64,000 nt of DNA from the IMG/VR virus record IMGVR_UViG_3300042885_000900. One strand, written 5' to 3'. Source of the stretch: a virus. Lineage: Duplodnaviria > Heunggongvirae > Uroviricota > Caudoviricetes. Shown piece by piece: positions 429 to 47,036 of this stretch; within the stretch, counting starts at the first letter, position 1; each line of letters opens with the position of its first letter. The notes under the pieces are model-generated. The model made no database searches. It was not told the origin of the DNA and saw only the letters and a program-made list of their open reading frames with translations. Position numbers and translations under genes: made by a program.

Positions 429-2105
429 TTAACTCTCTTTTCTTAATGAACCATCGTAATGTTCAAATCTATCGTGTTCTGTTGGTGTTAGTAATAGTAA
501 TCCTGGTTTAACGTTACCTTTAATTGTTTCTTGATAAGAGTACGACATAAGAGTTTGTTCGTGAGGATGAGCCCATTTTGTTTCCAAATAACATTTATAA
601 TTACCTTCTTTTGTTAATACAATCGGCCAATTCGATAAATGGGATTCACCTGTTATATATGGTAACCCTTTATGAATATGTATTTCATCAAATTTTGTTT
701 TAGGTGAATTGGGGTCTAAACCTTGAACCGGTAATTTAGGGTTGTTTGGCCAATGTTTTTGTCTAAAATCTTGTGGGACGTTATACCAACTCCACTGCAC
801 ACTATGGTCACCAAAAAACTCACTAAAATTTAACTTTAAAAAATCAAAATTCTCTTTTTGAATAATTCCTAAAGATTTTTGATATAAATTGTCGACAAAT
901 CTTGGGAATCCATTTCTACACACCTCACCTTTTTTAGGGTAAAACGCCATGTCATCTTCAAAAAAGTAATAAAAATCCAAATCAGTTTCATCGAAATGTT
1001 CAGCAACAAATACCCTACCACCAACAATTCCAATATTATCTTTTTTAATATGTTCAAAACCATATTGTTCACATAGTTCAATATATCTCGGTGTTGTGGT
1101 TAAATCAGTTGAATTATCTAATAAGAATTTCTTTGGTTTCTCCACAAAATCTTTATCGTAGTCCAACATAGATTGGATAAGAACCTCTAATTGTTTTGGT
1201 GAGTTAAATGTGATTACATAAAGAGCTACTTTTGAAGTGTCCAAATTATTCACAACAACATCTTTAGACACTTCCGATTTAACCTCAACCGTCATATCTT
1301 TTAAATCCTCAAAGAATTTACCCATTAACCCATTACCCTCAATTTCCGAGTAAGTAATTAAGTTTGGGTATTTGTATGTCATAATTGTAAATAATGACTC
1401 TTCAGTACCCATTGACCCATTTGAAAGTGTTTCATTCATTAATCCGTAATAAATGGTATTAATTTCCGATATAACATCTTTTTTTCCACCAAAGAAACCT
1501 GCTCTAGCAACCATATTAACAGGTTTACCGGCTAAATCACATAATTCTTGATACTTGAATCCGTGAATTTCGTTATTGGTTTCATAAGGAAAACAAACAA
1601 AGTGAAAGTTCTTAACTAACTGGGGTAATTTATCTAAAACTTTATCATGGGTAAAGTACCCAGGGTGGATTGTGTTGGTTAACCCAGCATCAATCCAAAA
1701 CATATATTCTGACTCAAACTTATCTAAAATTTTTGCATCGTGTAATAAATAAACTTTTGACATAACCAAAGGGTTATACATTTCTAATTTGGCTTGTGTC
1801 GAATCTGTTAACCAACCAACTTGGTTATACCAATCAGGGTTGGTTCTTATTTTTTGAATTTTATCGTAAAATTCACTATTTTTAAACCAAGATAAACTTC
1901 TACGAACAAATTGAGTGTTTTCGGAGCGTCTATTATCTAACACAAATTTTTCTAATTCTTCATCACCAAAAATTATCATATTTACATCAACTTGTAATAG
2001 TTGTTGGAATTTATCTAAATAATGTTGGAATGAGCGAGACCACCCTTCTTGAAGGTCACCTCTTCCAATATCCCATAATCCTGTTACTAATGTTACTTTA
2101 TTCAT
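429..2105 (-). CDS. HtrL/YibB-like domain fused to a GT-A glycosyltransferase-like domain
   Basis: N-terminal TLVTGLWDIGR, WIDAG and GGFFGG-like motifs; C-terminal half with FFEDD (DxD-like). Confidence 0.6.
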   Translation of the reverse strand: MNKVTLVTGLWDIGRGDLQEGWSRSFQHYLDKFQQLLQVDVNMIIFGDEELEKFVLDNRRSENTQFVRRSLSWFKNSEFYDKIQKIRTNPDWYNQVGWLTDSTQAKLEMYNPLVMSKVYLLHDAKILDKFESEYMFWIDAGLTNTIHPGYFTHDKVLDKLPQLVKNFHFVCFPYETNNEIHGFKYQELCDLAGKPVNMVARAGFFGGKKDVISEINTIYYGLMNETLSNGSMGTEESLFTIMTYKYPNLITYSEIEGNGLMGKFFEDLKDMTVEVKSEVSKDVVVNNLDTSKVALYVITFNSPKQLEVLIQSMLDYDKDFVEKPKKFLLDNSTDLTTTPRYIELCEQYGFEHIKKDNIGIVGGRVFVAEHFDETDLDFYYFFEDDMAFYPKKGEVCRNGFPRFVDNLYQKSLGIIQKENFDFLKLNFSEFFGDHSVQWSWYNVPQDFRQKHWPNNPKLPVQGLDPNSPKTKFDEIHIHKGLPYITGESHLSNWPIVLTKEGNYKCYLETKWAHPHEQTLMSYSYQETIKGNVKPGLLLLTPTEHDRFEHYDGSLRKES

Positions 2106-2110
2106 TGTTT

Positions 2111-3034
2111 TTATATTTTAAAATTTTTTATATCATGCCACATCATATAGAAAGGTTTTAATGGATTTTTTTCTTTATCCCACATTTTATAGTGATAATC
2201 ATCGTGTTCTCCGGATGCAAATGTGTTAAAAATAAATGTAATTTTTTCGTCTTCACTGATTAAATCATAAGATGGTTTCATAATTACTTCTTCTGTACAA
2301 AGTATATTTTTTTCTAATATTTTTTCAGTAAATTCCCAAAATAAATTTATGTATTTTTTTAATATTTGAGTATCACCCCCAAACATACCACCGACCGGAT
2401 AGGGTGATTCAAAAGGTTTGTCTAATATTCCGTGTTGTAAAAAAGGATAACTTATTTGAGGACCATATGAACAAACAAACATTATTTTATTTTCACATAT
2501 TTTATTTAATTTATTATATATTTCGCTATCAATTATTTTTGAAAAATTAAACACATCTAAATGAGCCCACCAATCTGTTGGTACGCCTAAATTTTCATAA
2601 TCCGTATTATAAACTTTAGAGTACATCCAAGGGAATATTCCCGGGTGTTGCAAACCAACATCAACCCAATAAACTTTATCAAACCCATCAAGTTCTCTTT
2701 CCATAACATCAAATTTTCCCCACATTATTTCAGGACCTCTTCCATCTAAATCGGTATCAAAATTATTATTTCTAATTTTTTTAATTTCATTATGGTATTT
2801 TACATCAGATAGTTCTAATATTTTTAACTCTAAATTAGTTAAATCATATCTTACTTTAATATCGTTAAGTTCGTCGTAATTTTTACTATGAGTATAGCAG
2901 ATAACCGGTAAACTACTACCAATACAATGAGAAATTAATGACCCTTGATATCTTATTTTTCTAATTGGGGAGACTCCTTGATATGGATATCCTTCAACAT
3001 CCATCCAATATGTGGTAACAATTTTAGTTTTCAT
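2111..3034 (-). CDS. HtrL/YibB-like glycosyltransferase-related protein
   Basis: WVDVG, GGMFGG and TEE motifs paralogous to the N-terminal domain of 429..2105. Confidence 0.55.
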   Translation of the reverse strand: MKTKIVTTYWMDVEGYPYQGVSPIRKIRYQGSLISHCIGSSLPVICYTHSKNYDELNDIKVRYDLTNLELKILELSDVKYHNEIKKIRNNNFDTDLDGRGPEIMWGKFDVMERELDGFDKVYWVDVGLQHPGIFPWMYSKVYNTDYENLGVPTDWWAHLDVFNFSKIIDSEIYNKLNKICENKIMFVCSYGPQISYPFLQHGILDKPFESPYPVGGMFGGDTQILKKYINLFWEFTEKILEKNILCTEEVIMKPSYDLISEDEKITFIFNTFASGEHDDYHYKMWDKEKNPLKPFYMMWHDIKNFKI

Positions 3035-3061
3035 AATTTTTTTTATTTATATTTTTTTATT

Positions 3062-3814
3062 TTAAAATCTAATATACAATTGTTCTGATTTATTGTAAAA
3101 TTGGAAACATTGTTGTAGGAAATGATTAAAAGCGTTATCAAAATGCCATTTCATTCCGGCCTCTAAAGCTGATATACCAATTTCAAATCCTTCGGCATAA
3201 TTTCTAATTTTATTTTCAATACTGTACCATAAAAATTGTTCCCATCTTTGGACAAAAAATCTAAATTTATATGAATTTTTAAATATCATAAATTGTTCAT
3301 TAACACAATGAGCTTCATCCCATTTATCGTATTCTAACATATCATAATCTATTAATTTTTGCATAAAAAAACTACCTTCAGGATGGGCTCTACTATCACC
3401 AATTCTTGCTGGTCTCTCAAATACAAAATCATAATCGTTTTCTTTAGTCCAATTTAACATATTTAAAACTTTTTTTTCTGAAAAATGTTCAAACATTGTC
3501 CAATCACCATCTGAAAAAATTATAAATTCATATCCTTCAGAATTAGGGTTATTTTTTTCATACTCTAAAATATGTTTTAGAGATAATACTTTTAAATTAT
3601 AATGAAAACTTGTTGTACCAACCGCTTCGTGATGTAATGATGGAGGGTTAATTACTTTAATTTTAAATCTATCACCTAAATCGGGGAAATTTTCATTTGT
3701 TGTTGTTATGAAAAAATCGCAGTTAGATGTTCTTGACGCTAAATCAGAATAAAATTGAATTGTTTTCTTTTCGTATTCTTCACCAATCGATAATGTTGTA
3801 AAACAATATTTCAT
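3062..3814 (-). CDS. Putative GT-A nucleotide-sugar transferase
   Basis: IFSDGD DxD motif; located within the glycan operon. Confidence 0.5.
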   Translation of the reverse strand: MKYCFTTLSIGEEYEKKTIQFYSDLASRTSNCDFFITTTNENFPDLGDRFKIKVINPPSLHHEAVGTTSFHYNLKVLSLKHILEYEKNNPNSEGYEFIIFSDGDWTMFEHFSEKKVLNMLNWTKENDYDFVFERPARIGDSRAHPEGSFFMQKLIDYDMLEYDKWDEAHCVNEQFMIFKNSYKFRFFVQRWEQFLWYSIENKIRNYAEGFEIGISALEAGMKWHFDNAFNHFLQQCFQFYNKSEQLYIRF

Positions 3815-3815
3815 A

Positions 3816-4496
3816 TTATAAGTTAAGGTCTTTTAAATAATTCAAAGCTTGTATTGCACTTGGAACTAATGGTTTATCATTCTCGTCAATTTGCATTCCT
3901 ATAAAAAAATCTTTATTATCTCTATGGATATAGTTTTCTTCACTATCATATCCACAATAGAAGATATTGTTTTTATCAATATTTTCCATATATAATTGTA
4001 GTATTGTTTGGTCGGAACCCCAAACTAATTCATTGTTTTTAATAAATTCATTGAAGTGTTCCTCAAATAAATTTATTTTACGTTTAATTCCAAATAGCCC
4101 ACTTGGTACTGGTGAATGCCAAGGATGGTCTCTTATTATAAAATAATCATTATCTGTTTTTAACCAACTATTAATATAACTAACTTCTCGATGACTAAAT
4201 CTACTATCTAAATCTCTAACAATTGATGGAGTATCCTCTAAAAAACTCAAGAATCTCCAAAAATATGGGAAATGAATTGATTCTAACCCACCTATAGTTA
4301 AATCTTTAACATTAATTAAGTTGGCACCTAATTCAGATAAAATTTTAATGTATTCTGTTAGGATAAAGTCACTATGATAATAAATTCTAATTTCCCAATC
4401 AGGTAATAAAGAATTAACCTCGACGGTATTTTTAACTGCACCAATATAATATTTCATATTGGTTCCAAATAATGTGAATGATACGATTGGTCTCAT
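3816..4496 (-). CDS. Putative glycosyltransferase
   Basis: SFTLFG...Y..GA..N, WRFL, VRDLDSR, IRDHPWH and DQ motifs. Confidence 0.55.
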   Translation of the reverse strand: MRPIVSFTLFGTNMKYYIGAVKNTVEVNSLLPDWEIRIYYHSDFILTEYIKILSELGANLINVKDLTIGGLESIHFPYFWRFLSFLEDTPSIVRDLDSRFSHREVSYINSWLKTDNDYFIIRDHPWHSPVPSGLFGIKRKINLFEEHFNEFIKNNELVWGSDQTILQLYMENIDKNNIFYCGYDSEENYIHRDNKDFFIGMQIDENDKPLVPSAIQALNYLKDLNL

Positions 4497-5344
4497 TTTT
4501 CATAAATATTTTTTACGTTTATATTTGAATATCTTTCTTCGTCATCAACAATTAAATTAACGTAAGTGTTGTAAACAGGGTTATCTGAATTCATTCCCGA
4601 GTTTGGGCCGTCATTGGTTAAAGGCCAATATATTTTTTCAGCATTTGATAAAAAACAAGCCCAAAAAGAAAAAGTTCCTTGTGCCGCAATTATTTTATTA
4701 AAAGACGTGATTTCTGAAAAAACATCAAGTATATCACCATCAATTAATTTAGGGTTATATTTTTCTAATTTATTAATTAATGATTGATGTTTATTTATGT
4801 GGTCAAATGAAATATATAAATTATCAAAAGTTTCTTGAGATATTATATTAAGGTAATAACTATCCGGTAAAACAAAACTCCCATCGTGATTACTACTCCT
4901 TAACATAATCACTAAATCATTACTACCCCTTTTATCTTTAACAATACTTTTAAAATATTCTTTAACTTTAATTTTATATGGTTTGATGTAATCATATTTT
5001 GAAAAATATGATTGGTTTATAAATCCGTGATTTGGGTAGGATTGTATTAAATTTTCAATACTACCTAATTGTATAATATCACCATCTTGAATAACTTTAA
5101 TTGGGTTATCCACAATATTTCCTTTAACACCTTTAAATGGAAACATAATTTCATTGTATTGTCCGTTTTTAGTGTCTTCTCTTCTTATTAAGGCATTTTC
5201 CGGAGATATTAACTCGTACCCTAGTAGTTCGCTAATTATTCTACAAGCGGAATATATAAACAATTTATTACCCAAATTTTTTCTTGGAGATGAAAAATAA
5301 CCACCCTCTAAATATGAATCGTATTCATCATAAATTTTAACCAT
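4493..5344 (-). CDS. GT11 (alpha-1,2-fucosyltransferase)-like protein
   Basis: NLGNKLF, LRSSN (variant of HxRxxD), YY and GTFSFWACFLS motifs. Confidence 0.6.
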   Translation of the reverse strand: MVKIYDEYDSYLEGGYFSSPRKNLGNKLFIYSACRIISELLGYELISPENALIRREDTKNGQYNEIMFPFKGVKGNIVDNPIKVIQDGDIIQLGSIENLIQSYPNHGFINQSYFSKYDYIKPYKIKVKEYFKSIVKDKRGSNDLVIMLRSSNHDGSFVLPDSYYLNIISQETFDNLYISFDHINKHQSLINKLEKYNPKLIDGDILDVFSEITSFNKIIAAQGTFSFWACFLSNAEKIYWPLTNDGPNSGMNSDNPVYNTYVNLIVDDEERYSNINVKNIYEK

Positions 5345-5347
5345 TTT

Positions 5348-6595
5348 TTATAAATTACCCGTTATTCTTTCACACCAACCTTTTGACGTACTAAACGGCC
5401 AAACAACCCAGTATTTTGGTTTATGAACTGTTTGAAATTCTCTCCAAACTTTACAATACCCATCAGGGTCTCTCATCATATTATTAATTTCATTAATGTC
5501 AGCGTCTCTTCTATTTAAAGTTTCATCATTCTCGTCGTGGAAAGCAACTACCCAAAACTCATAATCCTTCTCCGGTACTTGAGTAAATCCAATATCAATA
5601 CAATGTTTGAAGATGCTAGCATAACTCGCCAACCATTCTTCTTCTGTTTCATAAATTGTTGGATTGGGGGCGTAATGTTTGTCTAATGTATATTGTTGAA
5701 CCGCTCTATTTGAAAATTTAAGACCTGAATAAATTTCATAATCCCTTAAAGTTCTTTCAGTTCCAAAACCATAATAACTAAAATCCATAGTGACCTCTTC
5801 ACCATCCATACCAAATAATTGACGATTTTTTAAATGAGATAATTCGTTTTTCTTACCCCACTCTTTATCATCATCCCATTGTTTGGTTCTACCCTTACGA
5901 GTATATTCGTGCCAAATAACGGTTTTATGTGGGTGGAATAAATCATATCCGTGAGTATATGCTCTAACGGCAATTGATATTTCTTCACCGTGAAAATAGA
6001 ACTCAGGGTCGTGTTGAACCTCGACACTAAATTGTCCTACTGTAAATGCCATATGGGCGGAGTAAAATCTTGAGGTAACGGGTTCTTTAAGGTTTTCCCA
6101 CCCCGGAATTGTTTCAGGTAAGAAGAAGACGGCACCTTCTGGTATAAATCTATCAAACGACATTCTCCATGGGTCTCTAACTCTCCCTGCCGGGTCATTG
6201 TCAGGGTCAAATGAAGAAACATACCCTGTCAATAAAGGTTTCTTAAATCCTTTCTTTTGAAGTTGTTTAACCATTTTGATTAAGGTGTCATCCCAATCTT
6301 TCTCAAATCTCATGTGAGAGTCAATTTGTAGGGTATATTCTTCACCTTTATATAATTGTTGTACTTGGTTTCTTGCCCAACAAACACCTTTGGATTCGGT
6401 GTATAAAACGTCAACAACTCTAAATCTTTTATCTTTTGCGTATTCAGATAAATCATCAAACCCGTCTTCCGGGTGATATTGACGACATATTCCAATTACC
6501 AAATTTTTAGGTTTTTTCGCATTCTCCAACATTGACTTAATTGTTGGAATAAGTTGGGGGTCACGATAGGACGCGATTTGTACAAAAATTTTCAT
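5348..6595 (-). CDS. GT60-like polypeptide GlcNAc-transferase (Skp1 GlcNAcT/Gnt family)
   Basis: IFVQIASYRDP, GVCWAR, LQIDSHMRF..WD and FHGEE..R.YTHGYD motifs. Confidence 0.75.
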   Translation of the reverse strand: MKIFVQIASYRDPQLIPTIKSMLENAKKPKNLVIGICRQYHPEDGFDDLSEYAKDKRFRVVDVLYTESKGVCWARNQVQQLYKGEEYTLQIDSHMRFEKDWDDTLIKMVKQLQKKGFKKPLLTGYVSSFDPDNDPAGRVRDPWRMSFDRFIPEGAVFFLPETIPGWENLKEPVTSRFYSAHMAFTVGQFSVEVQHDPEFYFHGEEISIAVRAYTHGYDLFHPHKTVIWHEYTRKGRTKQWDDDKEWGKKNELSHLKNRQLFGMDGEEVTMDFSYYGFGTERTLRDYEIYSGLKFSNRAVQQYTLDKHYAPNPTIYETEEEWLASYASIFKHCIDIGFTQVPEKDYEFWVVAFHDENDETLNRRDADINEINNMMRDPDGYCKVWREFQTVHKPKYWVVWPFSTSKGWCERITGNL

Positions 6596-6670
6596 ATTTA
6601 CCTTAATTTATTTAAAAAATAATATTTAAACGAAAAAGATAAATATGAAAATAATTTATTGTGGATTAAT

Positions 6671-9253
6671 TTATGGGTAAATCATAATTAGTTCTAAATA
6701 ACCGGTAGATTGTTGTCCGTATAATTTATTACCAATTGCAAATATTAAATTATATTCCGTTGTAAATGATTGGAAGACCGTCCCATCGGAATTTAAAATT
6801 ATCCAATTTAATGATGGTGTACCATTATATGAAGTAAAAGTACCCCAAAGTAATAATTTATTTGTCCATATTATTGTACAGTAAGAACTAAGGTCTGCTG
6901 TTCCACCTGATAATCCGGTACCACTATTAAAACTAGGGTCAATAGTTCCATCAGACATTAATTTAAGAATTCTGTTGACAGGTGTTCCATTGTACATAGT
7001 AAATCCTCCACCATTGTAATTAGTACCAACAACATAAAAGGATGTTTCTCCGGATATTCGAAAAGTATTAATTGCTTCCTCTCCGTAACTATTAAACCCT
7101 GTACCATAATTAAAACTATCGTCTTTATATCCATTAGATTGTAATTTAATAATATGGTTTGCAGAAATACCACTAAACGACGTGAAATACCCCGTAACAT
7201 ACATAGAATCATCAGGATTAACTAACACACCTTGAGGGATAGTAGGTGCTCCGGCAAATCCTGTTGTTGCTGAGAAAGTCATATCCATAGTACCACCACT
7301 ACTTAGTTTTGCTAAACCATAGATAGGGGTAGTAACTCCATTATATGTCGAAAAATATCCCGGAACTATAATATTACCCAATGAATCAATTCCCGGTACC
7401 GCCGTATAAAAACCGTTAAATCCTGAACCCATAACAAAAGTGTTATCAATACTACCATCAACATTTAATCTAACGATTCTATTTTTGGATACACCACTAT
7501 ATGATGTTAAAAATCCTGTCGCAATTATCTTACCGTCAGGTTGTTGTATGATTGATTCACCATTGTAAAAATAGTCATATGGACCAGCAAATCCTGTACC
7601 ACCAGTAAATGAATAATCAATTGTTAAATCTTGATTTAATTTTATTATACCTCCAGCAGGAACCACATTATTTTCACTATAACCTGTATATGCACCATAG
7701 AAATATCCGCTAGTGGAATTATCAATAAAATCAATTAAATAGGCTGAGTCGTTAGGTTCAAATCTATATTGAGGTGTTGGTGACGGTGTCATTGTTTGAG
7801 TTGGAGTTATTGTTGGTGTCAAAGTCGGAGTTTGTGTTGGTGTTTGACTCGGTATGGGTAACGAACCACTAATGTCAAAAGGACAAGTAAGATTAAAAGC
7901 CGATATAGTGTGAGGAGTATTTGCATAATAACTACTAATATATCCTTTATATCCGTCTTTAAACAGTATTCTAGGCCCACTACCCATATTAATACTTCCA
8001 CTAAGGTTGAGTGTTTGAGTTGAGGTTATACCCGTTATATTATAAGGACTTGATAAAGTATATCTAATTAGATTATTACCACTATTAAACGTAAATAGAT
8101 ACAAACCGTTATTTTGAAAATTAAAATCAGAGACAAATCCGGTCGCAGAGGTAGAGGTTAACGTACCACCAATTATATCCCAAGCACTTGTTAATGTGTA
8201 TTTCTTTAAACCTCCGGTCCCTAATAATACCATAGTTAACCCATCAGGAGTAAATTTAACAACACTTAAACTTGTGCCATATGTTGTAGCTGACGCACTA
8301 AGACTCATTGTGGTTATATCCCAAGGAGTACTTACCGTAAATTTTCTTAAAACACCTGAACTAGCATTACAAACAAATATTTTTGTACCATCAGGTGAAA
8401 AACAGTGTCCTTGAGCACTACTTACAATAGTGTCGGTATTTATAGATACCGCTGCCGGTATTGCATATACTCCAGATGCAGCCGATTGAAAACCATTTGC
8501 AATTATAGTCGATACATCCCAAGGGGTACCTAAATTATACATTATAATTGGGTCATATCCTGTACTTGAACCTACTCCAGTATTATGTCGTGTGAAATAT
8601 ACTTTTGTACCATCCGGATAAAAAGATGAATAACTATTTTGCATCAAAACAGTATACTTTTCATTATTGTAAATTGTTTGTGGAATACATGCAGATACAT
8701 CAGTCGGAGTTACCGTTGGTGTCAGAGTATTTGTTGGCGTAATTGTTGGTGTTTGAGTATTAGTCGGAGTTGGAGTTATTTCGGATGTTGGACAACTATT
8801 ATCAACACAGACACCATTAATTGAGATTATTACATTTTCATCTGCAAACGGTAATTTACCACAAACATAAAAAGTTGTTGATTGAGGGATAACACCTGTA
8901 AATATAGTTTCGTCACATAGAATATAACCAAAATTTAAATTTCCGGTTCCAACATTAATAAAGGCGATGCAACTACAAGAAAGATTTGTTGGTGTTATTG
9001 TTGGTGTTGGTGTTAGTGTTGGGGTGGGTGTAGGTGTAAAACAGTTAATGTAATTTATTGTTTCACATCCTTTACTGTCGGTAATAACTACTAATAATTG
9101 GTTAACCCCATTTAGTTGTGTAGGTGGCGTTATTGTTATGGGTGCTGAAGTCACACCACTAATCGCAAAATAACAATAAGTATATGTAATATCACATATT
9201 GTGATACTAAATGGTGGATGCCCTACTAAACTAGTTATTTCTATTGATTGCAT
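6671..9253 (-). CDS. Virion/surface protein with Thr-Pro linkers, beta-propeller repeats and delta-60-like repeats
   Basis: Three (TP)n tracts; Y.L.T.WD repeats; QPDGKIIATG...NRIVRLNVDGSIDNTF repeats. Confidence 0.65.
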   Translation of the reverse strand: MQSIEITSLVGHPPFSITICDITYTYCYFAISGVTSAPITITPPTQLNGVNQLLVVITDSKGCETINYINCFTPTPTPTLTPTPTITPTNLSCSCIAFINVGTGNLNFGYILCDETIFTGVIPQSTTFYVCGKLPFADENVIISINGVCVDNSCPTSEITPTPTNTQTPTITPTNTLTPTVTPTDVSACIPQTIYNNEKYTVLMQNSYSSFYPDGTKVYFTRHNTGVGSSTGYDPIIMYNLGTPWDVSTIIANGFQSAASGVYAIPAAVSINTDTIVSSAQGHCFSPDGTKIFVCNASSGVLRKFTVSTPWDITTMSLSASATTYGTSLSVVKFTPDGLTMVLLGTGGLKKYTLTSAWDIIGGTLTSTSATGFVSDFNFQNNGLYLFTFNSGNNLIRYTLSSPYNITGITSTQTLNLSGSINMGSGPRILFKDGYKGYISSYYANTPHTISAFNLTCPFDISGSLPIPSQTPTQTPTLTPTITPTQTMTPSPTPQYRFEPNDSAYLIDFIDNSTSGYFYGAYTGYSENNVVPAGGIIKLNQDLTIDYSFTGGTGFAGPYDYFYNGESIIQQPDGKIIATGFLTSYSGVSKNRIVRLNVDGSIDNTFVMGSGFNGFYTAVPGIDSLGNIIVPGYFSTYNGVTTPIYGLAKLSSGGTMDMTFSATTGFAGAPTIPQGVLVNPDDSMYVTGYFTSFSGISANHIIKLQSNGYKDDSFNYGTGFNSYGEEAINTFRISGETSFYVVGTNYNGGGFTMYNGTPVNRILKLMSDGTIDPSFNSGTGLSGGTADLSSYCTIIWTNKLLLWGTFTSYNGTPSLNWIILNSDGTVFQSFTTEYNLIFAIGNKLYGQQSTGYLELIMIYP

Positions 9254-9332: not shown

Positions 9333-12050
9333 ATGAAAAAAGTTTTAATTATAACCCCCCATTTAAGTACTGGTGGAGCACCACAAGTAACACTTAATAA
9401 GATAAAGTTATTAAAGAACGATTATATTATTAAATGTGTTGAATATTCTTTGGTTGCGTGGAACTATGTGGTTCAACGAAATCAAATTGAAAATATGTTA
9501 TTAGATAATTTCCACCCATTAGGAGATAATAAATCTGAACTTATTAATATTTTAAAAGATTTTAATCCTGATGTTGTTAGTATGGAAGAATTCCCTGAAT
9601 TCTTTATGGACGATGAAATAACAAAAGAAATATATAAGCAAGACCGTAGATACACTATTTTTGAAACTACCCACGATTCTAGCTTTCCTGTTACATCAAA
9701 AAGATTTTTTCCTGATAAATTCATATTTGTAAGTGCGTTTAACGCCTTTAGATATTCTATCTTTGATATTCCATATGAAATAATAGAATATCCTGTAGAT
9801 GTCAAAATAAAAAACCAAAAAGAGAATCAAGAGAAATTAGATTTAAACCCTAATTGGAAACATGTGGTTAATGTTGGTTTATTTACCGCTAGAAAAAACC
9901 AAAAATATCTTTTTGAGATTGCCGAATACTTAAAGAATTATAAAATTAAATTTCATTTTATTGGGAATCAAGCGGACAACTTTAAAGATTATTGGGGACC
10001 ATTGATAACTAACAAACCAAAGAATGCCATTATATGGGGTGAAAGAAATGATGTGGGTAGTTTTATTCAAGCATCCGATGTATTTTTCTTTTCATCAAAA
10101 GGTGACCGAAATAATAAGGAATTAAACCCTATCGCCATTAAAGAGGCTTTAGAGTATAAGATACCGATGATGATGTATAATTTGGAGGTTTATTGTGATA
10201 AATACAATGATAAAGAATCAATAATCTTTTTAACCGGAGATATAAAACAAGATTCCGAAAACTTATTAAACATATTAGGTCTTGAGATTGACAATAATTT
10301 AATCTCATCCATAAATGATGATGAAGTAATTATTATCAGTACTTACCCCGACACCATTAAACGCAAAAATCTAACGATTGAGTGTATAGAAAGTTTCAAA
10401 AAATTAGGTAGAAAAATTATATTAGTTTCTCATTATCCGGTACCAAATGAAATACAGGAGATGGCGGATTATTATATATTTGACTCAAATAATTTAATGA
10501 TACCTCATTCATATTATACTCACTTCTATAATAATACAGACCAATATAATACTCAAATAAACATCAATGGGTTATCAAATTCAAATCAATCTTTGGCGGT
10601 ACACATGAATTTTATGAATGGTGCTAAATTGGCTAAAGATATTGGTGCAACCAAATTTATGATAATCACTTATGATGTTATTCTAAATGATTTAGACATA
10701 CCATTAATTGAAGAATATTTTAATAAATTAACAACTTGGAACTGTTGTTTATCCTATATGGATAATGGTATTGAAACGACATCAATGGTGTTTAAAACCA
10801 GTTATTTTCTAAATACTTTTTTAGATATTAATGATGAAGTTACCTTTAATAATCATTGTTTAGAATTAAAATGTCACAATTTTTTAGAAAATTACTATAT
10901 GAAAATTTTAGAAGGTAAAGAAAATATTTGGATTGAATATAATAATAAAAAAACAATATTACCGAATTCAGGTTTGGGGGTATCATCTAATTCTGAATAT
11001 TATTCAATTTTACCAGTTAATGATACTAAAAATAGGTGGGTGTTTTATTTTTATACATATAATATTGATAATCGTAGATTGGAATTATCAATTAATAAAT
11101 CGGGTAAAAACATCTTTAATGATTCTATAATTATTTCCGAACATAAGTTAGATTTAGTAACCAATAGAGCAAAATATTTTAAACATATCGATTATGATGG
11201 AGAACCTATTGAAATTATCATTTCATTTTATGATGGAAATAATTTACATAAAACAGAAACTTACGAATTAAATGATGTAACAATTCACGAATATCGTAAT
11301 AACGGGTTCTTTAAAGAAATTAATATTAACCAATCTTTAAAATATAATGTTAAAGTATTACATTTACAAACAACCATAGACGACAGTAGAGAGCAACTAT
11401 CAAGAGAATCTGTTAAAAGAGTTTGTGATTTTGGGTTTAATTATGTATTACATCAAAATGAGGTGTTTTCATCATTACCACCATCACATAATTGTTTAAG
11501 ACCTCATAATGTTAGATTAGAAAAATATACTAATATTAACGACCCTGAATACGGGAATGCTTTAACCCCAACTCATTATGGATGTTTTGAATCATTCAAA
11601 TTGGGGATTATGTCTGAATTTGATAAAGATTTAGATTTTCTAATTGTGTGTGAAGGAGATTGTATAATTGAGGTCCCTATGGAGGAATTTGTAAATAAAG
11701 TCAATCAAGTTTGTGAAATCATTAATAATGAAGATATATCTTATTTCTCATTTGGAGATACTAAAACATTAGATTTTGGGTGGCATCAATCTGATGTGGT
11801 TAGAGAAATACCTAATCAAGATTTACTTTTTATTACTGATAAAATAATTGGTTTGCAATGTATCATGTTTCCAATAAAAACTAAAGAATACCTTATCAAT
11901 AAATTAAGAACCGAAAAATGGGATTGTATGGACACATTTTTTAATATAATTTTTTCAGGTAAAAATATGGGGATACTAAAAAATAGAATAACAACTCAAT
12001 CAGACGGATATTCTTTAATTGATAAAGAATTAAAAACATTTATAAAATAA
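9333..12050 (+). CDS. Multidomain glycosyltransferase (GT4-like N-terminus, central domain, GT25-like C-terminus)
   Basis: PHLSTGG, VG...RKNQ and ELNPIAIKEA motifs; C-terminal GCFESF...IVCEGD. Confidence 0.7.
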   Translation: MKKVLIITPHLSTGGAPQVTLNKIKLLKNDYIIKCVEYSLVAWNYVVQRNQIENMLLDNFHPLGDNKSELINILKDFNPDVVSMEEFPEFFMDDEITKEIYKQDRRYTIFETTHDSSFPVTSKRFFPDKFIFVSAFNAFRYSIFDIPYEIIEYPVDVKIKNQKENQEKLDLNPNWKHVVNVGLFTARKNQKYLFEIAEYLKNYKIKFHFIGNQADNFKDYWGPLITNKPKNAIIWGERNDVGSFIQASDVFFFSSKGDRNNKELNPIAIKEALEYKIPMMMYNLEVYCDKYNDKESIIFLTGDIKQDSENLLNILGLEIDNNLISSINDDEVIIISTYPDTIKRKNLTIECIESFKKLGRKIILVSHYPVPNEIQEMADYYIFDSNNLMIPHSYYTHFYNNTDQYNTQININGLSNSNQSLAVHMNFMNGAKLAKDIGATKFMIITYDVILNDLDIPLIEEYFNKLTTWNCCLSYMDNGIETTSMVFKTSYFLNTFLDINDEVTFNNHCLELKCHNFLENYYMKILEGKENIWIEYNNKKTILPNSGLGVSSNSEYYSILPVNDTKNRWVFYFYTYNIDNRRLELSINKSGKNIFNDSIIISEHKLDLVTNRAKYFKHIDYDGEPIEIIISFYDGNNLHKTETYELNDVTIHEYRNNGFFKEININQSLKYNVKVLHLQTTIDDSREQLSRESVKRVCDFGFNYVLHQNEVFSSLPPSHNCLRPHNVRLEKYTNINDPEYGNALTPTHYGCFESFKLGIMSEFDKDLDFLIVCEGDCIIEVPMEEFVNKVNQVCEIINNEDISYFSFGDTKTLDFGWHQSDVVREIPNQDLLFITDKIIGLQCIMFPIKTKEYLINKLRTEKWDCMDTFFNIIFSGKNMGILKNRITTQSDGYSLIDKELKTFIK

Positions 12051-16699: not shown

Positions 16700-16727
16700 A
16701 AAAAACCCCAATTAAGGGGTTTTTTTA
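16700..16727. terminator. Bidirectional intrinsic terminator
   Basis: aaaaaacccc-aatta-aggggttttttt between convergent genes. Confidence 0.75.
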
Positions 16728-27435: not shown

Positions 27436-27446
27436 TTATAATATGT

Positions 27447-28025: not shown

Positions 28026-28056
28026 AATTTTGTTTTATTTATAAATATTGTTATTT

Positions 28057-35637: not shown

Positions 35638-36552
35638 ATGGATATTAAAACTGAAAAAAAAATTATCTCCGAATATAAAAAGGGGAAAAGTAGTTTAGAA
35701 ATTGTTAAAATTGTTGGATTATCAAAACCAACAATTCTTAAAGTACTACACAAACATAATTTAGTTAGAAAAAGAGATAGATGTTCTTCTTTAAATATTA
35801 AAAAAGATGGGGAAAAATACTATATTATTCGTAAATGTCCAAAATGTGGTCAAGACATAAAAACTACATCAAAAGATAGAACAATTGCTTGTCGGAATTA
35901 TTTTAATTCCATAAATAAAAATAGTAATTGTGTTAAATGTATGTCAGAATCTTTTATTGGTGAGGGAAATCATTTTTTTGGTAAAACTCACAAAAAAGAA
36001 AGTTTAGAAAAAATATCCAAAAGTAAAAAAGGTCAAAATTCAGGGGATAAAAATCATATGAAACAAGAAAAATATCGTCAAATGAGTAGAGATATTATGA
36101 GGTCAAATTGGGATAACGGTATATTAGATAGGGGTGTAATTTCTGAGCAAATGAAACAAACTCAACGAAGTGGTAAAATTAAATCAACTATTGTTTCAAA
36201 AAAAGAAAAAGAGATTGTTAAAGAATTGAGAAAATTAGGTTATAAAATAATTCATTCATATCGGGTTGATAGTAAAGTGTGTGATGTATATATCCCATCA
36301 TTAAATTTAATTATAGAGTATTTTGGAGATTATTGGCATTGTAATCCAAAAAAATATGAACCAAATTATTTTAATCAGAAAAAAAATAAATTTGCTTGGG
36401 AATTATGGGATTATGATAAAAAGAAACTTGAATTAATTAAAAGTTATGGTTATAATTTAGAAGTTGTGTGGGAGGGAGACCTAAAACTCAACAATAAATT
36501 AATAGAAATCATAATAGAATCCTATGTCACAAAACTCACTTCAACGCCCTAA
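35638..36552 (+). CDS. Free-standing homing-type endonuclease (HTH, Zn ribbon, NUMOD3, Vsr/DUF559-like PD-(D/E)xK)
   Basis: CPKC; NHFFGKTHKKES; CDVYIPSLNLIIEYFGDYWH. ATG 35638 preferred because it follows TATTTATA at 35614. Confidence 0.75.
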   Translation: MDIKTEKKIISEYKKGKSSLEIVKIVGLSKPTILKVLHKHNLVRKRDRCSSLNIKKDGEKYYIIRKCPKCGQDIKTTSKDRTIACRNYFNSINKNSNCVKCMSESFIGEGNHFFGKTHKKESLEKISKSKKGQNSGDKNHMKQEKYRQMSRDIMRSNWDNGILDRGVISEQMKQTQRSGKIKSTIVSKKEKEIVKELRKLGYKIIHSYRVDSKVCDVYIPSLNLIIEYFGDYWHCNPKKYEPNYFNQKKNKFAWELWDYDKKKLELIKSYGYNLEVVWEGDLKLNNKLIEIIIESYVTKLTSTP

Positions 36553-37783
36553 CGGTCAAGAAAAGATTAGCGTACTCGTACTGCCATCTGACCGCTCGGG
36601 CGTTGGTTAACAAAACGGTAAATTTCGCTCAGTCGACCCCCATGTATTCCTACAAAATCAATATCCCGATGATTTTCATGTGGATATTGATTACGACCCA
36701 AAGATAGATGATATTAATTATTGGAAAAAATATCAGATAATTCACGCACATAGAACTATTGGTAATAACTACGATGTGTCGGCACAAATAATTAAAGGGT
36801 TAAAAGAATTAGGGATTATTGTTATTGTTGATATTGATGATTATTGGTTACCAACAGTAGACCACCCAATCCATAGTATTATTGTAAAACATAAAATCCA
36901 CGAAAAAATAGTTGCAAATTTAAAAGAAGCCAGTTATGTTACAACAACAACTGATTTATTTGCAAACGAAATTCGTAAGCTTAATAAAAATGTACTAGTT
37001 TTACCAAACGCTATAAATCCAAAAGAGGGTCAATTTAATCAACCAACACCACCATCAGAAAAAATTAGAGTCGGATGGCTTGGAGGTAGTTCTCACATTG
37101 AGGATTTAAATTTGTTGGGGAATTTTGTTCAAAAAAATCAAGACATAAATGATAAATTACAATATGTTATTTGTGGTTTTGATATTAGAGGTACCGTAAC
37201 GGAAATGAATCCACAAACAGGTGAAGAAAGAAAAAGAGATATATTACCTCACGAAACTGTTTGGACTAAATATGAAGATATTTTCACTAACAAGTATAAA
37301 ACCATAGATGAGAACTATAAAAAACATTTATTAGAGTTCAAAGAAAGAGAATTTTTATCAACAAGTGATTTACCATATGTTAGAGTTTGGACAAAACCTG
37401 TTACAACTTACGCTATGAATTATTCAAAATTTGATATATCTTTGGCACCAATTAAAAATCATATATTCAATAGGATGAAATCTCAATTAAAGGTGATTGA
37501 GGCTGGGTTTTATAAAAAAGCGTTAATTGCTTCAGAAATCGGACCTTACACCATTGATTTAAAACATTGTTTGAAAAATGGTAATTTTACAGATGGTAAC
37601 GCAATTTTAATACCCGAGAATAGAAATCATAGTGATTGGTCTAAATCAATTAAAAAATTGGTTCAAAACCCTGAAATGATTACTGAATTAGGCGAGAGAT
37701 TATTTGAAACTGTTAAAGACAAATATGATTTAAAAAATGTGACCGTTACAAGAGCAGAATTTTACAAATCTTTAATTAAATAA
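36524..37783 (+). CDS. GT-B glycosyltransferase with an in-frame TAA at 36608 (candidate 12-nt translational bypass, or pseudogene)
   Basis: ATG 36524 is in frame with ORF 36680..37783: MSQ...ISVLVLPSDRSGVG*QNGKFRSVDPH...; body has DIDDYW, GWLGGSSH and FNRMKSQLKVIEAG. Confidence 0.7.
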
Positions 37784-39084: not shown

Positions 39085-39106
39085 CTCAACAAATTTAAAA
39101 GTGGTC

Positions 39107-39634: not shown

Positions 39635-39635
39635 T

Positions 39636-40184: not shown

Positions 40185-40188
40185 TAAT

Positions 40189-44200: not shown

Positions 44201-44284
44201 ATATTATATAAATACCCTAATTTTTCTTAAAAGTCAAATATTTACAAAAAAAAATATATAATTATTTTAATATAAAACAAATAA

Positions 44285-45156: not shown

Positions 45157-45160
45157 CACA

Positions 45161-46222
45161 ATGACACAAGAACAAATTTCAAAAATAGAGAAATCTATAG
45201 AGAACATGAAAGATAAGAAATCAAGAATTTATCTTTTGGTTCAAGACACTAAAGGTAATGCAAAAGCTTCCTTATCTTATATCTATAATTTAGGTATATC
45301 ATTATTAAACGAAGGTTATAATGTAATTATGTTACACGAAAAATCTGACTACACAGGAGTTCAAAGTTGGTTAGGTCAAGAGTACATGGATTTATTACCT
45401 CATAAACCAATTGAAGGTGAAAATTTAGAAGTTTCTCCTGAAGACTTTATTATTTTACCAGAACTTTACGGATTTGTAATGAGTCAAATCTCCAAGTTAC
45501 CTTGTGGTAAAATAGTATTATGTCAAGCATATGACCACATATTAGAAACTTTACAACCAGGTCAAACTTGGTCACAATTAGGGTTTTTTAAATGTATAAC
45601 AACATCAGAGATTCAAAAAGAATATTTAGAAAATATTATGAGAAATGTATCATTTGATATATTAAAACCTTTTATCTCCGATGAATTTACTCCAAACACA
45701 TTACCATCAAAACCAATAATTGCAATACATGCGAGAGACCAAAGAGATTCCACTAACATAATAAAATCTTTTTATATTAAATTCCCCCAATATAGATGGG
45801 TAACATTTAGAGATATGAGAGGGTTATCAGAAACTGAATTTGCTAAAGCATTAAAAGAATGTTTCCTTTCTGTGTGGATTGATGAAACAAGTTCATACGG
45901 TACTTTCCCTTTAGAATCTATGAAATGTAATGTTCCGGTTTTAGGGTTAGCACCTAATTTAGTACCTGAATGGATGAATGAAGATAATGGTGTTTGGATT
46001 AATAATAAAATACAAATTGTTGATTATATTTCTGACTTTTTACAAAATTGGTTAGAAGATAGTATTAACGAAAATTTAGAAGGTGAAATGTTAAAAACCG
46101 TTGGAACTCTATCTACCAAAGAAACTTTCAACTCTGAAGTTATAAACCTTTTTGAAAGATACTTGTCTGTTAGATTAGAATCATTTGAAGAACAATTATC
46201 TAAACTAGAAACAATAGAATAA
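45161..46222 (+). CDS. GT-B glycosyltransferase-like protein
   Basis: IILPE and SSYGTFPLESM.C.VPV motifs. Confidence 0.65.
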   Translation: MTQEQISKIEKSIENMKDKKSRIYLLVQDTKGNAKASLSYIYNLGISLLNEGYNVIMLHEKSDYTGVQSWLGQEYMDLLPHKPIEGENLEVSPEDFIILPELYGFVMSQISKLPCGKIVLCQAYDHILETLQPGQTWSQLGFFKCITTSEIQKEYLENIMRNVSFDILKPFISDEFTPNTLPSKPIIAIHARDQRDSTNIIKSFYIKFPQYRWVTFRDMRGLSETEFAKALKECFLSVWIDETSSYGTFPLESMKCNVPVLGLAPNLVPEWMNEDNGVWINNKIQIVDYISDFLQNWLEDSINENLEGEMLKTVGTLSTKETFNSEVINLFERYLSVRLESFEEQLSKLETIE

Positions 46223-46223
46223 T

Positions 46224-47036
46224 ATGGAAGAAACTAAAACATTTGATGTATCCGTAATATTACCAATAAAATCAGGTAAAACATTAGGATTTGCAGAGTA
46301 TTTTGAAAAATGTATACTATCATTACAAAATCAAAAAGTAGAAATAAATGAACTAATAATTGTTCATACTAACGAAAGTTATTTGACCGATTATTTAAAT
46401 GAGTTTGACTTTGGAAGTTTAACGGTTAAAAAATATGAATGGACTAAAGACCCTAACTACGCCGACCAAATAAACTATGGTGTTAGAAATTCAAATTCAG
46501 AATGGGTCTCATTGTTTGAATTTGATGATGAGTATTCCAGTATTTGGTTTAAAAATGTTAACCTTTACAGTGAGGTGTATCCCGATGTAAATGCGTTTTT
46601 ACCAATCGTTGTAGATACTGACGAATCAGGTAAATTTGCCGGATTCACAAATGAAGCAACTTTTGCGGCCAATTTTACTGAAGAAATGGGTGTATTAACT
46701 AATGAAACATTACTTGACTATCAAAATTTCCAAACATCAGGTATGGTGATTAAAAAATCATCATTTATTGATTTTGGATTAATTAAGTCATCATTTAAAT
46801 TAACCTTTGGTTATGAATTCTTTTTAAGAATGACACATAACTCGGTAAAAATTATATCAATCCCAAAAATAGGTTATAAACATACAAATTTAAGACAAGG
46901 GTCTATTTTTTGGAATTATAAAAATGGTGAAAATGTGTTAACCGATGATGAGATTAAGTTTTGGATTGATTCAGCAAAAAAAGAATATTTCTTTATTAAT
47001 GATAGAAACATAAAATACGAACCTCAAGAAGTTTAA
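46224..47036 (+). CDS. GT2 glycosyltransferase
   Basis: VSVILPI; N.G......WVSLFEFDD. Confidence 0.7.
   Translation: MEETKTFDVSVILPIKSGKTLGFAEYFEKCILSLQNQKVEINELIIVHTNESYLTDYLNEFDFGSLTVKKYEWTKDPNYADQINYGVRNSNSEWVSLFEFDDEYSSIWFKNVNLYSEVYPDVNAFLPIVVDTDESGKFAGFTNEATFAANFTEEMGVLTNETLLDYQNFQTSGMVIKKSSFIDFGLIKSSFKLTFGYEFFLRMTHNSVKIISIPKIGYKHTNLRQGSIFWNYKNGENVLTDDEIKFWIDSAKKEYFFINDRNIKYEPQEV

Follow-up and report, generated by a model that had tools for sequence, protein, structure and literature searches.

The 64,000-nucleotide window analysed here (IMG/VR record IMGVR_UViG_3300042885_000900) comes from a large uncultured T4-like lake phage and carries a set of glycosylation, methylation and sulfation genes amid fibre-like genes. 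Set beside hundreds of contigs from related phages, they suggest that the phage sugar-coats its own fibres, and it appears rather probable that soluble phage enzymes O-glycosylate, in the cytoplasm, fibrous and probably virion-borne phage proteins whose glycans would be methylated and, on one fibre, sulfated. The original prediction had been an O-glycan on the phage's own virion, with a putative role as shield or host mimic; comparative genomics favours fibrous-protein acceptors for the first two of the three gene clusters. Pfam, PHROG and PDB searches supported glycosyltransferase (GT) assignments, at the HMM or PDB level, for 12 ORFs of the window (three of them weak) with at least 14 GT domains; among the roughly 15 GT-like ORFs claimed earlier, one further ORF is a GT-like lead and two have no assignable family (Table 1). 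The four SAM-methyltransferase domains, the APS kinase and the PAPS-type sulfotransferase that had been anticipated were all recovered by Pfam.

Table 1. Coordinates of the enzymes, candidate acceptors and other elements in the window
Feature	Position	Strand	Match or description
558-aa HtrL/YibB-like protein	429..2105	-	Pfam PF09612 (HtrL_YibB), E 7e-20
Variable four-ORF tailoring cassette	2111..5344	-	
HtrL-like lead	2111-3034	-	
ORF without assignable family	3062-3814	-	
ORF without assignable family	3816-4496	-	
GT ORF	4493-5344	-	Weak GT11 / PHROG GT match
GT60-family glycosyltransferase	5348..6595	-	Pfam PF11397, E 1e-69, 236 bits
860-aa mucin-like protein	6671..9253	-	DUF5122 propeller, TP linkers
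905-aa multidomain GT	9333..12050	+	Pfam GT4 plus two more domains
CmcI-type methyltransferase + GT2 fusion	12055-13218	+	Pfam
MT24 methyltransferase	13215-13844	+	Pfam
953-aa GT2 + GT4 + TibC/Aah-type (BAHT) domain	13837..16698	+	PDB 4rap, E 1e-49
Symmetric A-run / stem-loop / T-run	16700..16725	.	
291-aa GT9-like protein, zero cysteines	16725..17600	-	Weak Pfam GT9, weak WaaC match
APS kinase	17611..18057	-	Pfam PF01583, E 5e-20
PAPS-type sulfotransferase	18050..18871	-	Pfam PF13469 + PF00685, E 1e-14
724-aa BspA-type LRR protein	19470..21644	-	S+T 30%
1564-aa fibre	21722..26416	-	
Three fibre-region ORFs, same direction	26434..32853	-	
GT phrog_7162	36524..37783	+	PHROG E 1e-45 over 36680-37783
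MT24 methyltransferase	39053-39634	+	Pfam
MT24 methyltransferase	39636-40184	+	Pfam
GT2_4 / GT92-like GT	40150-40920	+	Pfam
507-aa protein, two GT2-type domains	40892-42415	+	Pfam
Weak GT1-like ORF	45161-46222	+	Pfam
GT2 ORF	46224-47036	+	

The modules map to the morphogenesis region of this T4-like phage, and the window also encodes a major capsid protein of Gp23 type, a gp5-like N-terminus (read by eye) and a collagen-type fibre. Ser and Thr account for 20-30% of residues in six window ORFs, whereas in the proteome of a complete relative the median is 12% and the 95th percentile 22%. The predicted clustering of enzymes among Ser/Thr-rich structural genes holds for module 1 (429-9253, minus strand) and module 2 (9333-32853), but not for module 3 (36.5-47 kb).

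The GT60 enzyme of module 1 scores far above the Pfam cut-off of PF11397 (21 bits), which bears out the resemblance first proposed, shows ASYRD and DSH motifs in its translation and has 430 relatives among viral contigs. CAZy family GT60 (PF11397) comprises polypeptide alpha-GlcNAc-transferases of protists (Dictyostelium, Trypanosoma cruzi mucins; Skp1 Gnt1), and to our knowledge the family has no characterised member from phages or bacteria. The phage enzyme shares with these a strong family match, the DSH metal-binding motif and a linked Thr/Pro-rich, mucin-like acceptor candidate, but is soluble, lacks a Golgi anchor and comes from a bacterial virus. Judged by sequence, it is a candidate initiating polypeptide HexNAc-transferase, with the 860-aa mucin-like protein as its candidate substrate. 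The N-terminal region of this protein (154 aa, Cys-rich) is conserved and carries an invariant (TP)n linker whose Thr positions are unchanged in 20 variants; the protein has further TP linkers as well. The gene directly upstream of GT60 shares this N-terminal domain in 42 of the 64 related loci with sufficient upstream flank, although such locus counts are not independent events because the compared loci come from related phages. The body of the upstream partner (165 to 2641 aa) is swapped between loci yet still Ser/Thr/Pro-rich, and 37 of 43 distinct GT60-upstream proteins fall within the top 5% for Ser plus Thr. The GT60 homologue of Xanthomonas phage XacN1 lies amid replication genes, with no Ser/Thr-rich or mucin-like neighbour, and other Ser/Thr-rich fibre genes of the complete relative are far from any GT.

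That the glycosylated proteins are not part of the virion, the mucin-like protein for example being intracellular or released and its glycan serving solubility or protease protection, seems very unlikely. Neither the 860-aa protein nor its N-terminal domain has a PHROG or PDB match, as such a role would allow, but a conserved N-terminus with a swapped distal body is the usual layout of phage fibre and decoration proteins, neither a signal peptide nor an N-terminal membrane segment was found in this protein, its gene sits in the morphogenesis region, and collagen-like partners in other phages (see below) have tail-fibre S74 chaperone domains. On the preferred reading of fibrous virion acceptors, for which we infer acceptor, sugar, order of steps and virion location, GT60 would place the first HexNAc on Thr of the (Thr-Pro)n linkers of the upstream-encoded protein while virions assemble.

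A strain-variable GT cassette would then extend and tailor the linker glycan, with participation of the conserved HtrL-like enzyme. The latter, whose HtrL/YibB-like domain is N-terminal and whose remaining ~300 C-terminal residues match no family, has a homologue in 71 of 80 GT60-centred loci and is the conserved gene that bounds the variable island distally. Between the two flanks, 65 loci hold 53 GT/methylase protein families in 35 architectures, the cassette ORFs of the window belonging to the families numbered 13, 12, 6 and 1 in this comparison; a close relative (G002) has different genes in place of the entire block. Eight of the ten largest cassette families matched GT (GT25, GT7C/GT2, GT34, GT10, GT2) or methyltransferase families, and the other two gave no Pfam match; methylases also occur in relatives' cassettes. 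In the first of the two ORFs without assignable family, a DxD-like motif (D102-G-D104) is invariant over 19 homologues.

Module 2 would comprise two convergent operons with one shared terminator, the symmetric element between them being likely bidirectional by its sequence. The plus-strand operon opens with the 905-aa GT, in which GT4 (residues 1-320) precedes a middle domain (331-563); its C-terminal domain (669-905) is a standalone gene in other phages. Both this GT and the TibC-like gene are present in 16 of 26 loci. The methyltransferase block between these two genes (12055..13844) is missing from the close relative. The expected TibC/Aah likeness of the 953-aa protein is well founded. TibC-TibA and Aah-AIDA-I of E. 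coli are bacterial autotransporter heptosyltransferase (BAHT) systems (PDB 4rap; PMC4358343), and ~300 residues of the phage catalytic domain align with roughly 45% identity (by eye). Residue mapping against PMC4358343 showed that the catalytic D110, the four iron-finger cysteines (C339/342/358/370), T226, K230 and W305 are kept, with three of the four donor-binding residues conserved in all. At position 300 the phage enzyme has Ser, like Aah, and R286, which touches the donor adenine in TibC, is replaced by Thr. LPS heptosyltransferases in the PDB gave no match to this domain at E < 0.1. Unlike TibC and Aah, the phage domain follows GT2 and GT4 domains in a single fused protein, its N-terminal barrel aligns at the tail only, and the beta-hairpin 'thumb' required for the TibC dodecamer (PMC4358343) is not conserved; in the complete relative, moreover, searches found no ADP-heptose pathway. 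The likely acceptor is, as in those systems, Ser/Thr of Gly-rich repetitive solenoid-type proteins modified in the cytoplasm, but in place of an autotransporter the candidates are collagen-like or UspA1-like phage fibres. In four other phage lineages a collagen-like fibre gene neighbours the TibC-like one, and two of these fibres have an S74 tail-fibre chaperone domain; this pairing is limited to 4 of 26 loci, and in further lineages the gene adjoins tail sheath, or terminase and portal genes. In the proposed scheme, Ser/Thr residues in the collagen-like or beta-solenoid repeats of fibres would be the targets of the TibC-like and the tri-domain GT4 enzymes.

The opposing operon combines fibre genes with a sulfation module at its end. 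The sulfotransferase, with both PAPS-binding motifs and more than 1800 relatives in metagenomes, is followed by an APS kinase with P-loop, DGDxxR and SPY motifs, which likely starts at ATG 18057 with 8 nt overlap with the sulfotransferase stop. In 80 sulfotransferase-centred loci the GT9-like gene is the most constant neighbour (71), while the APS kinase is present in 56. A UspA1/YadA-like 'STIGGG'-repeat fibre likewise occurs in 56 of these loci, with 504 nt as the median distance, and in 44 cases it lies immediately upstream in the same orientation; by comparison, it occurs in 0 of 80 GT60-centred and 0 of 26 TibC-centred control loci. One sulfotransferase-linked repeat protein matched UspA1_rep (E 4e-9). 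The 1564-aa fibre of the window contains collagen-like (Gly-Ser/Thr-Ser/Thr)n runs and two UspA1/YadA-head-like 'STIGGGxxNxAxG' repeat blocks and is a candidate acceptor for both the GT9-like/sulfation module and the TibC-like domain. The three ORFs upstream encode a 333-aa protein (S+T 24%, Pro 12%), a 192-aa protein and a 1598-aa LRR protein, an LRR cassette (29325-31744) being missing in the close relative. In the predicted scheme, the APS kinase would convert host APS to PAPS and, with the GT9-like enzyme and the sulfotransferase, serve to modify the 'STIGGG'-repeat fibre.

Remodelling of the host envelope is an unlikely alternative by comparison with fibre glycosylation. In this scenario, the phage GTs, methylases and sulfotransferase would work through the host lipid carrier, flippase and ligase to rebuild LPS, O-antigen or capsule in the course of infection or pseudolysogeny, blocking superinfection or altering surface properties. 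GT2, GT4, GT9, GT10/11, GT25 and HtrL are typical of LPS/O-antigen loci, where similar cassette polymorphism is seen; LPS-core GTs are likewise soluble, and soluble GTs could use host undecaprenyl-linked intermediates or LPS core. Jumbo cyanophages, which are aquatic and T4-like, also have polymorphic clusters of numerous GTs that vary among close relatives (13 GTs in S-SCSM2R); these have been read as host-surface diversification or DNA modification, but come with sugar-nucleotide genes (PMC7824862; PMC12801897). As predicted, no nucleotide-sugar synthesis or export genes were found within the window. No GT has a membrane segment, and in the complete 322-kb relative no ORF has more than five and no polytopic protein fit as priming transferase, flippase, polymerase or ligase was found, nor were lipid-carrier genes or matches to SIS_2 (GmhA family), NTP_transferase, PAPS_reduct (CysD family) or ATP-sulfurylase. 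Envelope remodelling also leaves both gene linkages unexplained, the genes lie in the structural region, and only protein acceptors are known for the families of the two enzymes with the best matches. Four results favour fibrous phage acceptors for clusters 1 and 2: the gene directly before GT60 encodes a modular protein rich in Thr and Pro, the sulfation module tracks the repeat fibre, no GT has a membrane segment, and the relative lacks lipid-carrier/export machinery. Unlike in the cyanophage reading, the protein-specific GT families and their conserved linkage to candidate acceptor genes speak for proteins as targets.

Virion O-glycosylation has been described for mycobacteriophages (Freeman et al. 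2023, as cited in PMC12619734 and PMC12801897), whose phage-encoded GTs act in the cytoplasm on their own structural proteins, at the C-termini of capsid and tail-tube subunits. Those citing accounts mention no GT60 or BAHT types. The present phage has at least 14 GT domains, these two types among them, and candidate acceptors in fibres and linkers; to these it adds predicted methylation, a module for sulfation and a hypervariable cassette. Chloroviruses and Mimivirus also use virus-encoded, host-independent multidomain GT/methyltransferase enzymes on capsid or fibril proteins, from variable, clade-specific gene clusters (PMC9614988; PMC10117803); these are eukaryotic viruses, often with nucleotide-sugar synthesis, which the present lineage largely lacks while adding sulfation.

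Cluster 3 may perform further tailoring steps, perhaps in the same scheme. It has no Ser/Thr-rich genes beside it, its genes are intermingled with those for an exonuclease, a dUTPase/dCTP-deaminase-like protein, PhoH and two homing endonucleases, and a relative encodes a thymidylate-synthase-family gene, all of which would suit a mixed system in which clusters 1 and 2 modify phage proteins and cluster 3 glycosylates and methylates phage DNA or another non-protein target. We consider such a division decidedly unlikely: T4-type DNA glucosyltransferase families have no match in the window, the relative's ThyA-like gene (5-8 kb) scores as ordinary ThyA and lies ~210 kb from the cluster-3 equivalent (~218-229 kb), and at least five GT domains with two O-methyltransferase-type domains would be unusually many for DNA modification. 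A cassette is swapped in cluster 3 as well, as in the glycan islands: in place of 39632-40891, with methyltransferase and GT, the close relative has 2.9 kb including an NAD-dependent epimerase. At the 5' end of the phrog_7162 GT, a 12-nt insertion introduces an in-frame TAA, and the orthologue in the close relative is free of this insertion.

The gene content of the window tentatively points to an abundant lineage of freshwater jumbo phages with its own cytoplasmic, mucin-type protein O-glycosylation, a reading that we regard as quite possible while still somewhat short of probable, in which a GT60 initiator would act on a Thr/Pro-linker protein, a hypervariable island of glycosyltransferase (GT) and methylase genes would set a strain 'glyco-serotype', and PAPS-dependent sulfation would be dedicated to a UspA1/YadA-like repeat fibre. 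A giant-virus origin, at which collagen repeats, the GT60 gene and a GC content of ~30% had hinted, was dropped in view of the Gp23-type capsid protein, PhoH and the T4-like relatives. The nearest capsid relatives, at 40-46% identity, belong to an uncultured 484-kb phage, Microcystis phage Mel-JY01 and Flavobacterium 'immuto' phages, and one ORF begins with a gp5-like N-terminus (by eye from the sequence). The whole record of a relative, referred to as G002 (IMG/VR contig UViG_3300042482_000702, 322,477 bp, CheckV 100% complete), with 88-94% nucleotide identity across shared blocks, was used as a stand-in for the remainder of the genome.

Pfam, PHROG and PDB searches confirmed the inventory of GTs, methyltransferases, sulfotransferase and APS kinase listed in the original prediction, with GT support for twelve ORFs (three of these weak) carrying at least 14 GT domains, and four methyltransferase domains. 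The APS kinase displays P-loop, DGDxxR and SPY motifs and the sulfotransferase both the 5'-PSB and 3'-PB PAPS-binding motifs, each scoring above the family-model cut-offs, and their genes are adjacent with an 8-nt overlap. The four small ORFs of cluster 1 comprise one weak GT11/PHROG GT match, one HtrL-like lead (based on an ESM Atlas match and a collinear weak BLAST match) and two without an assignable family. PDB sequence and profile searches returned nothing credible for 2111-3034, 4493-5344 and 9333-12050, nor for alignments of the mucin-like N-terminal domain and the 3062-3814 family; hhalign of the latter alignment with two GT2-type proteins of the window likewise gave no match. Relaxed Pfam thresholds gained only the weak GT11 match, and single-sequence AlphaFold models of 3062-3814 and 3816-4496 (pLDDT 40 and 33) were unusable.

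Positions (window numbering), strands and content of the features discussed
Feature	Position	Strand	Content
Module 1	429-9253	minus	cluster 1 and mucin-like gene
Cluster 1	429-6595	minus	HtrL/YibB-like 558-aa protein, four small ORFs, GT60/PF11397 enzyme (E 1e-69)
HtrL-like gene	429-2105	minus	558 aa
GT60 gene	5348-6595	minus	
Mucin-like gene	6671-9253	minus	860 aa
Module 2	9333-32853		two convergent operons
Cluster 2	9333-18871		905-aa GT4-led tri-domain protein; methyltransferase+GT2 fusion; separate methyltransferase; 953-aa GT2+GT4+GT9 protein; weak GT9-like protein; APS kinase; sulfotransferase
905-aa GT	9333-12050	plus	
953-aa enzyme	13837-16698	plus	includes TibC-like domain
Symmetric terminator	16700-16725		ends the minus-strand array; common to the convergent GT operon 9333-16698
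Co-directional array	32853-16725	minus	in order: LRR giant (1598 aa), two small Ser/Thr/Pro-rich ORFs, 1564-aa fibre, LRR protein (724 aa), sulfotransferase, APS kinase, GT9-like gene
Small ORF	19013-19276		87 aa
Fibre gene	21722-26416	minus	1564 aa
Leucine-rich-repeat block	29325-31744		2.4 kb
NUMOD3 homing-endonuclease gene	35599-36552		absent in G002
Cluster 3	36.5-47 kb		PHROG GT; two MT24 methyltransferases; GT2_4/GT92-like protein; protein with two GT2-type domains; weak GT1-like protein; GT2
HNH/D5-like homing-endonuclease gene	43202-44200	minus	absent in G002
Block mostly unalignable with G002	54701-59648		
Metallopeptidase gene	55958-56560		M54-type
Fusion gene	57859-59568		569 aa
Major capsid gene	59702-61567		Gp23-type (Pfam E 1e-74)

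The window, as proposed earlier, encodes no sugar-nucleotide or export gene, and its GTs are devoid of hydrophobic segments in a hydropathy screen. In the same kind of screen, no ORF of the complete 322-kb relative had more than five such segments, so that none of them qualifies as a flippase, polymerase, ligase or polytopic priming transferase; the polytopic membrane proteins required by a lipid-carrier (Wzx/Wzy or ABC-type) polysaccharide pathway were accordingly not found in it by hydropathy. G002 also has no NTP_transferase, CysD-type or Sat-type sulfate-activation genes, or GmhA-type SIS domain, and its GT2 matches all lie inside the region corresponding to the window. Because export candidates and sulfate-activation genes are absent from G002, the enzymes must, judging from gene content, obtain their nucleotide sugars and APS from the host and find their acceptors in the cytoplasm, whether proteins, DNA or host lipid-linked intermediates reached from their cytoplasmic face. 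The last of these would allow the GT clusters to remodel the host surface, as soluble GTs could act on host intermediates, and polymorphic GT clusters of jumbo cyanophages have been interpreted as host-surface diversification or DNA protection (PMC7824862, PMC12801897). Glycosylation of phage DNA, of the T4 alpha/beta-glucosyltransferase type, finds no DNA-GT Pfam family among the window GTs, and the sole ThyA-family gene of G002, at 5-8 kb, is distant from the clusters.

Protein acceptors are favoured as the probable targets of clusters 1 and 2, cluster 3 being outside this argument, because the only acceptors known for the families of two of the enzymes are proteins, because conserved, control-tested linkages point to particular fibrous proteins, and because the genes are located in the morphogenesis region; all locus counts were drawn from related phages. 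The S+T content reaches 20-30% in six window ORFs, compared with a median of 12% and a 95th percentile of 22% for the G002 proteome. The GT clusters had been described as lying among Ser/Thr-rich genes, which holds for clusters 1 and 2 but not for cluster 3, whose neighbours are an exonuclease, a dUTPase, PhoH and two homing endonucleases. The idea that Ser/Thr-rich genes cluster only with GTs fails, as further Ser/Thr-rich fibre blocks occur in G002 well away from all GTs.

The first of the two enzymes, described earlier as GT60-like, proved strong at the family level, scoring 236 bits with the PF11397 model (cut-off 21). Its translation carries DSH at residues 92-94 and ASYRD at 8-12, which we take to be the defining motifs of GT60/PF11397, the former as the metal-binding DxH of GT-A enzymes; we know of no phage or bacterial member of the family that has been characterised. 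Among 430 IMG/VR relatives, the best 80 loci, 77-99% identical to the window protein, were analysed. The ~155-aa N-terminal region of the 860-aa mucin-like protein recurs directly upstream of GT60 in 42 of the 64 loci among these whose upstream flank is 3 kb or longer; the upstream gene typically ends 50-140 nt before GT60. Past this common region the bodies are entirely different, ranging from 165 to 2641 aa, but remain Ser/Thr/Pro-rich (S+T up to 0.45, Pro up to 0.19), and by S+T content 37 of 43 distinct proteins upstream of GT60 rank within the top 5%, an excess whose p-value is nominal since the loci come from related phages. Across 20 aligned variants, two small Cys-rich domains are linked by (Thr-Pro)n with invariant Thr positions, a pattern that is unusual in a linker and expected of modification sites. 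No signal peptide or N-terminal membrane segment was found in the 860-aa protein. The GT60 enzyme would, in the context of this adjacent Thr/Pro-rich ORF, be a putative transferase of GlcNAc to Thr, Ser or Hyp of a polypeptide. The GT60 homologue of Xanthomonas phage XacN1 has no Ser/Thr-rich neighbour.

Downstream of GT60, the gene for the HtrL-like protein is kept in 71/80 loci, and the interval between the two holds 53 protein families in 35 arrangements (65 loci). Eight of the ten largest cassette families scanned match a GT family (GT25, GT7C/GT2, GT34, GT10, GT2) or a methyltransferase family (MT24, FkbM, FtsJ-like, MT31), the other two having no Pfam match. Even G002, at ~90% nucleotide identity, carries a different cassette, and its mucin-like region spans 14 kb versus 2 kb. 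Module 1 may be read as a fixed candidate initiator that sits beside a candidate acceptor and precedes an exchangeable set of tailoring genes, an organisation that resembles O-antigen and flagellin glycosylation islands but differs from them in its attachment to a protein gene.

The second enzyme, predicted to be TibC/Aah-like, was substantiated by a phmmer match to PDB 4rap (E 1e-49) that aligned residues 643-945 of the 953-aa protein with TibC 62-379 (~300 residues), whereas no LPS heptosyltransferase in the PDB matched this C-terminal domain below E 0.1. Mapped in the TibC numbering of the structure paper (PMC4358343), the catalytic base Asp-110 and the iron-finger cysteines C339, C342, C358 and C370 are all identical, and T226, K230 and W305, which bind ADP-heptose, are kept, while R286 (adenine contact) is replaced by Thr and position 300 is Ser, as in Aah. 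The dodecamer thumb (beta-hairpin, F265/V266) is not kept, the 4rap alignment showing a gap and differing residues; for the N-terminal beta-barrel the alignment reaches TibC residues 62-97 only, and Pfam TibC_1st was not detected in the window protein and was weak in Mel-JY01. Because of the residue mapping and the 4rap match, the domain is, as far as sequence can tell, a genuine catalytic domain of the bacterial autotransporter heptosyltransferase (BAHT) type in a new architecture, with an uncertain donor sugar.

TibC and Aah systems comprise a cognate autotransporter; no such partner is encoded nearby, and collagen-like or UspA1-like fibres are the candidate acceptors. The TibC-like gene was found in 29 viral contigs, and also in Mel-JY01 and in huge phages of 636-735 kb, with a homologue of the 905-aa GT nearby in 16/26 loci; neighbours in other lineages include FkbM methylases, a DegT aminotransferase fusion, a PglD-like acetyltransferase and further GT9 enzymes. 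A giant collagen-like fibre gene adjoins it in four lineages, two of the fibres bearing an S74 tail-fibre chaperone domain, and since this concerns only 4/26 loci the pairing is suggestive. The neighbour in two lineages resembles a tail sheath (N-terminus, by eye), and in Mel-JY01 the gene lies near terminase and portal genes. The 1226-aa 'methyltransferase FkbM' of Mel-JY01 (PP395634.1, locus L131, 4750-8430) is really a GT4 + TibC N-terminal domain + GT9/TibC-like protein, encoded between a 'structural protein' gene and the terminase/portal genes, with a 639-aa cytidylyltransferase-like gene 3 kb downstream.

The 1564-aa fibre of module 2 combines collagen-like (Gly-Ser/Thr-Ser/Thr)n runs with two blocks of 'STIGGGxxNxAxG' repeats, and a homologous repeat protein of another phage matched the head repeat of the UspA1 adhesin (E 4e-9). 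In 80 sulfotransferase-centred viral loci (53-99% identity), the neighbourhood contains the GT9-like gene in 71, APS kinase in 56, the TibC-like gene in 34 and GT60 in only 12. Searches with the fibre's repeat region, under low-complexity masking, matched a protein in 56 of the 80; its median distance to the sulfotransferase is 504 nt, and in 44 loci its gene is the one immediately upstream, in the same orientation. None of the control loci has such a protein (0/80 GT60-centred, 0/26 TibC-centred). Therefore, the sulfation module with its GT9-like enzyme specifically tracks the STIGGG-repeat fibre type. More than 1800 metagenomic proteins match the sulfotransferase family (E ≤ 0.001), the longest of their contigs reaching 299 kb. 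In some IMG/VR relatives (L163, L178), three tandem paralogues of the repeat fibre precede the sulfotransferase and have in common a C-terminal motif, …GSNITADRACATFVNNLS…, that occurs twice inside the 1564-aa fibre. The leucine-rich-repeat block of the 1598-aa protein has no G002 counterpart, so that this array expands and contracts between close relatives, and the 600 nt that separate the sulfotransferase gene from the LRR gene contain the 87-aa ORF, which has one hydrophobic segment.

The GT clusters of other large aquatic phages are usually assumed to target the host surface or DNA, and to our knowledge self-glycosylation among phages has been demonstrated only in mycobacteriophages. Virion self-glycosylation is described for mycobacteriophages (as cited in PMC12619734) and giant viruses (PMC9614988); mycobacteriophage glycans are reported to have been located by mass spectrometry on capsid and tail-tube C-termini. 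The literature searched yielded no account of phage protein glycosylation that involves enzymes of GT60 or TibC type, a sulfation step or a hypervariable island of tailoring genes. The place of the acceptor proteins in the virion is putative. Stiffening and protease protection are known for glycosylated enzyme linkers, and by analogy such a role for the Thr/Pro linkers would be at least as likely as the shield or host mimic originally predicted. Three particular pairings of an enzyme with a candidate acceptor were seen repeatedly, in tens to hundreds of phage contigs from the environment. If the reading is true, we know of no earlier case of phage virions with sulfated glycoproteins, and their glycans would be diversified by selection in the way that bacterial O-antigens are. 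Its confirmation would mean that abundant lake phages bear strain-specific methylated and sulfated glycan coats, that viruses hold a large reservoir of protist-type (GT60) and pathogen-type (TibC/Aah) protein glycosyltransferases, and that O-antigen-like diversification acts on phage fibres, with a bearing on adsorption, protease and grazer resistance, and the engineering of glycosylated phage particles.

No candidate acceptor was found for cluster 3, and the one NAD-dependent epimerase of G002 lies inside its swapped cluster 3 cassette. Matches to the T4 late-promoter motif TATAAATA were not enriched in the window (21 versus 20 expected), and a sigma-70 promoter scan gave background levels. 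Within the block preceding the capsid gene, the metallopeptidase has a hydrophobic N-terminus, and a ROS/MucR + REase_MTES_1575 + GNAT fusion directly adjoins the capsid gene. The thymidylate-synthase-family gene of G002 (5332-7607, L116-L118) is divided into ORFs of 229 aa and 281 aa, in the manner of a gene interrupted by an intron or mobile element. Within 43181-44276, the HNH/D5-like gene separates PhoH from the next ORF. Within 35582-36680, the NUMOD3 gene is inserted just upstream of a GT gene whose first ~60 nt of coding region are synonymously recoded relative to G002, and the window has an extra 12 nt (~36608-36619) with an in-frame TAA between two GGT codons, an insertion lacking in G002; the arrangement recalls the T4 gene 60/mobA cassette.
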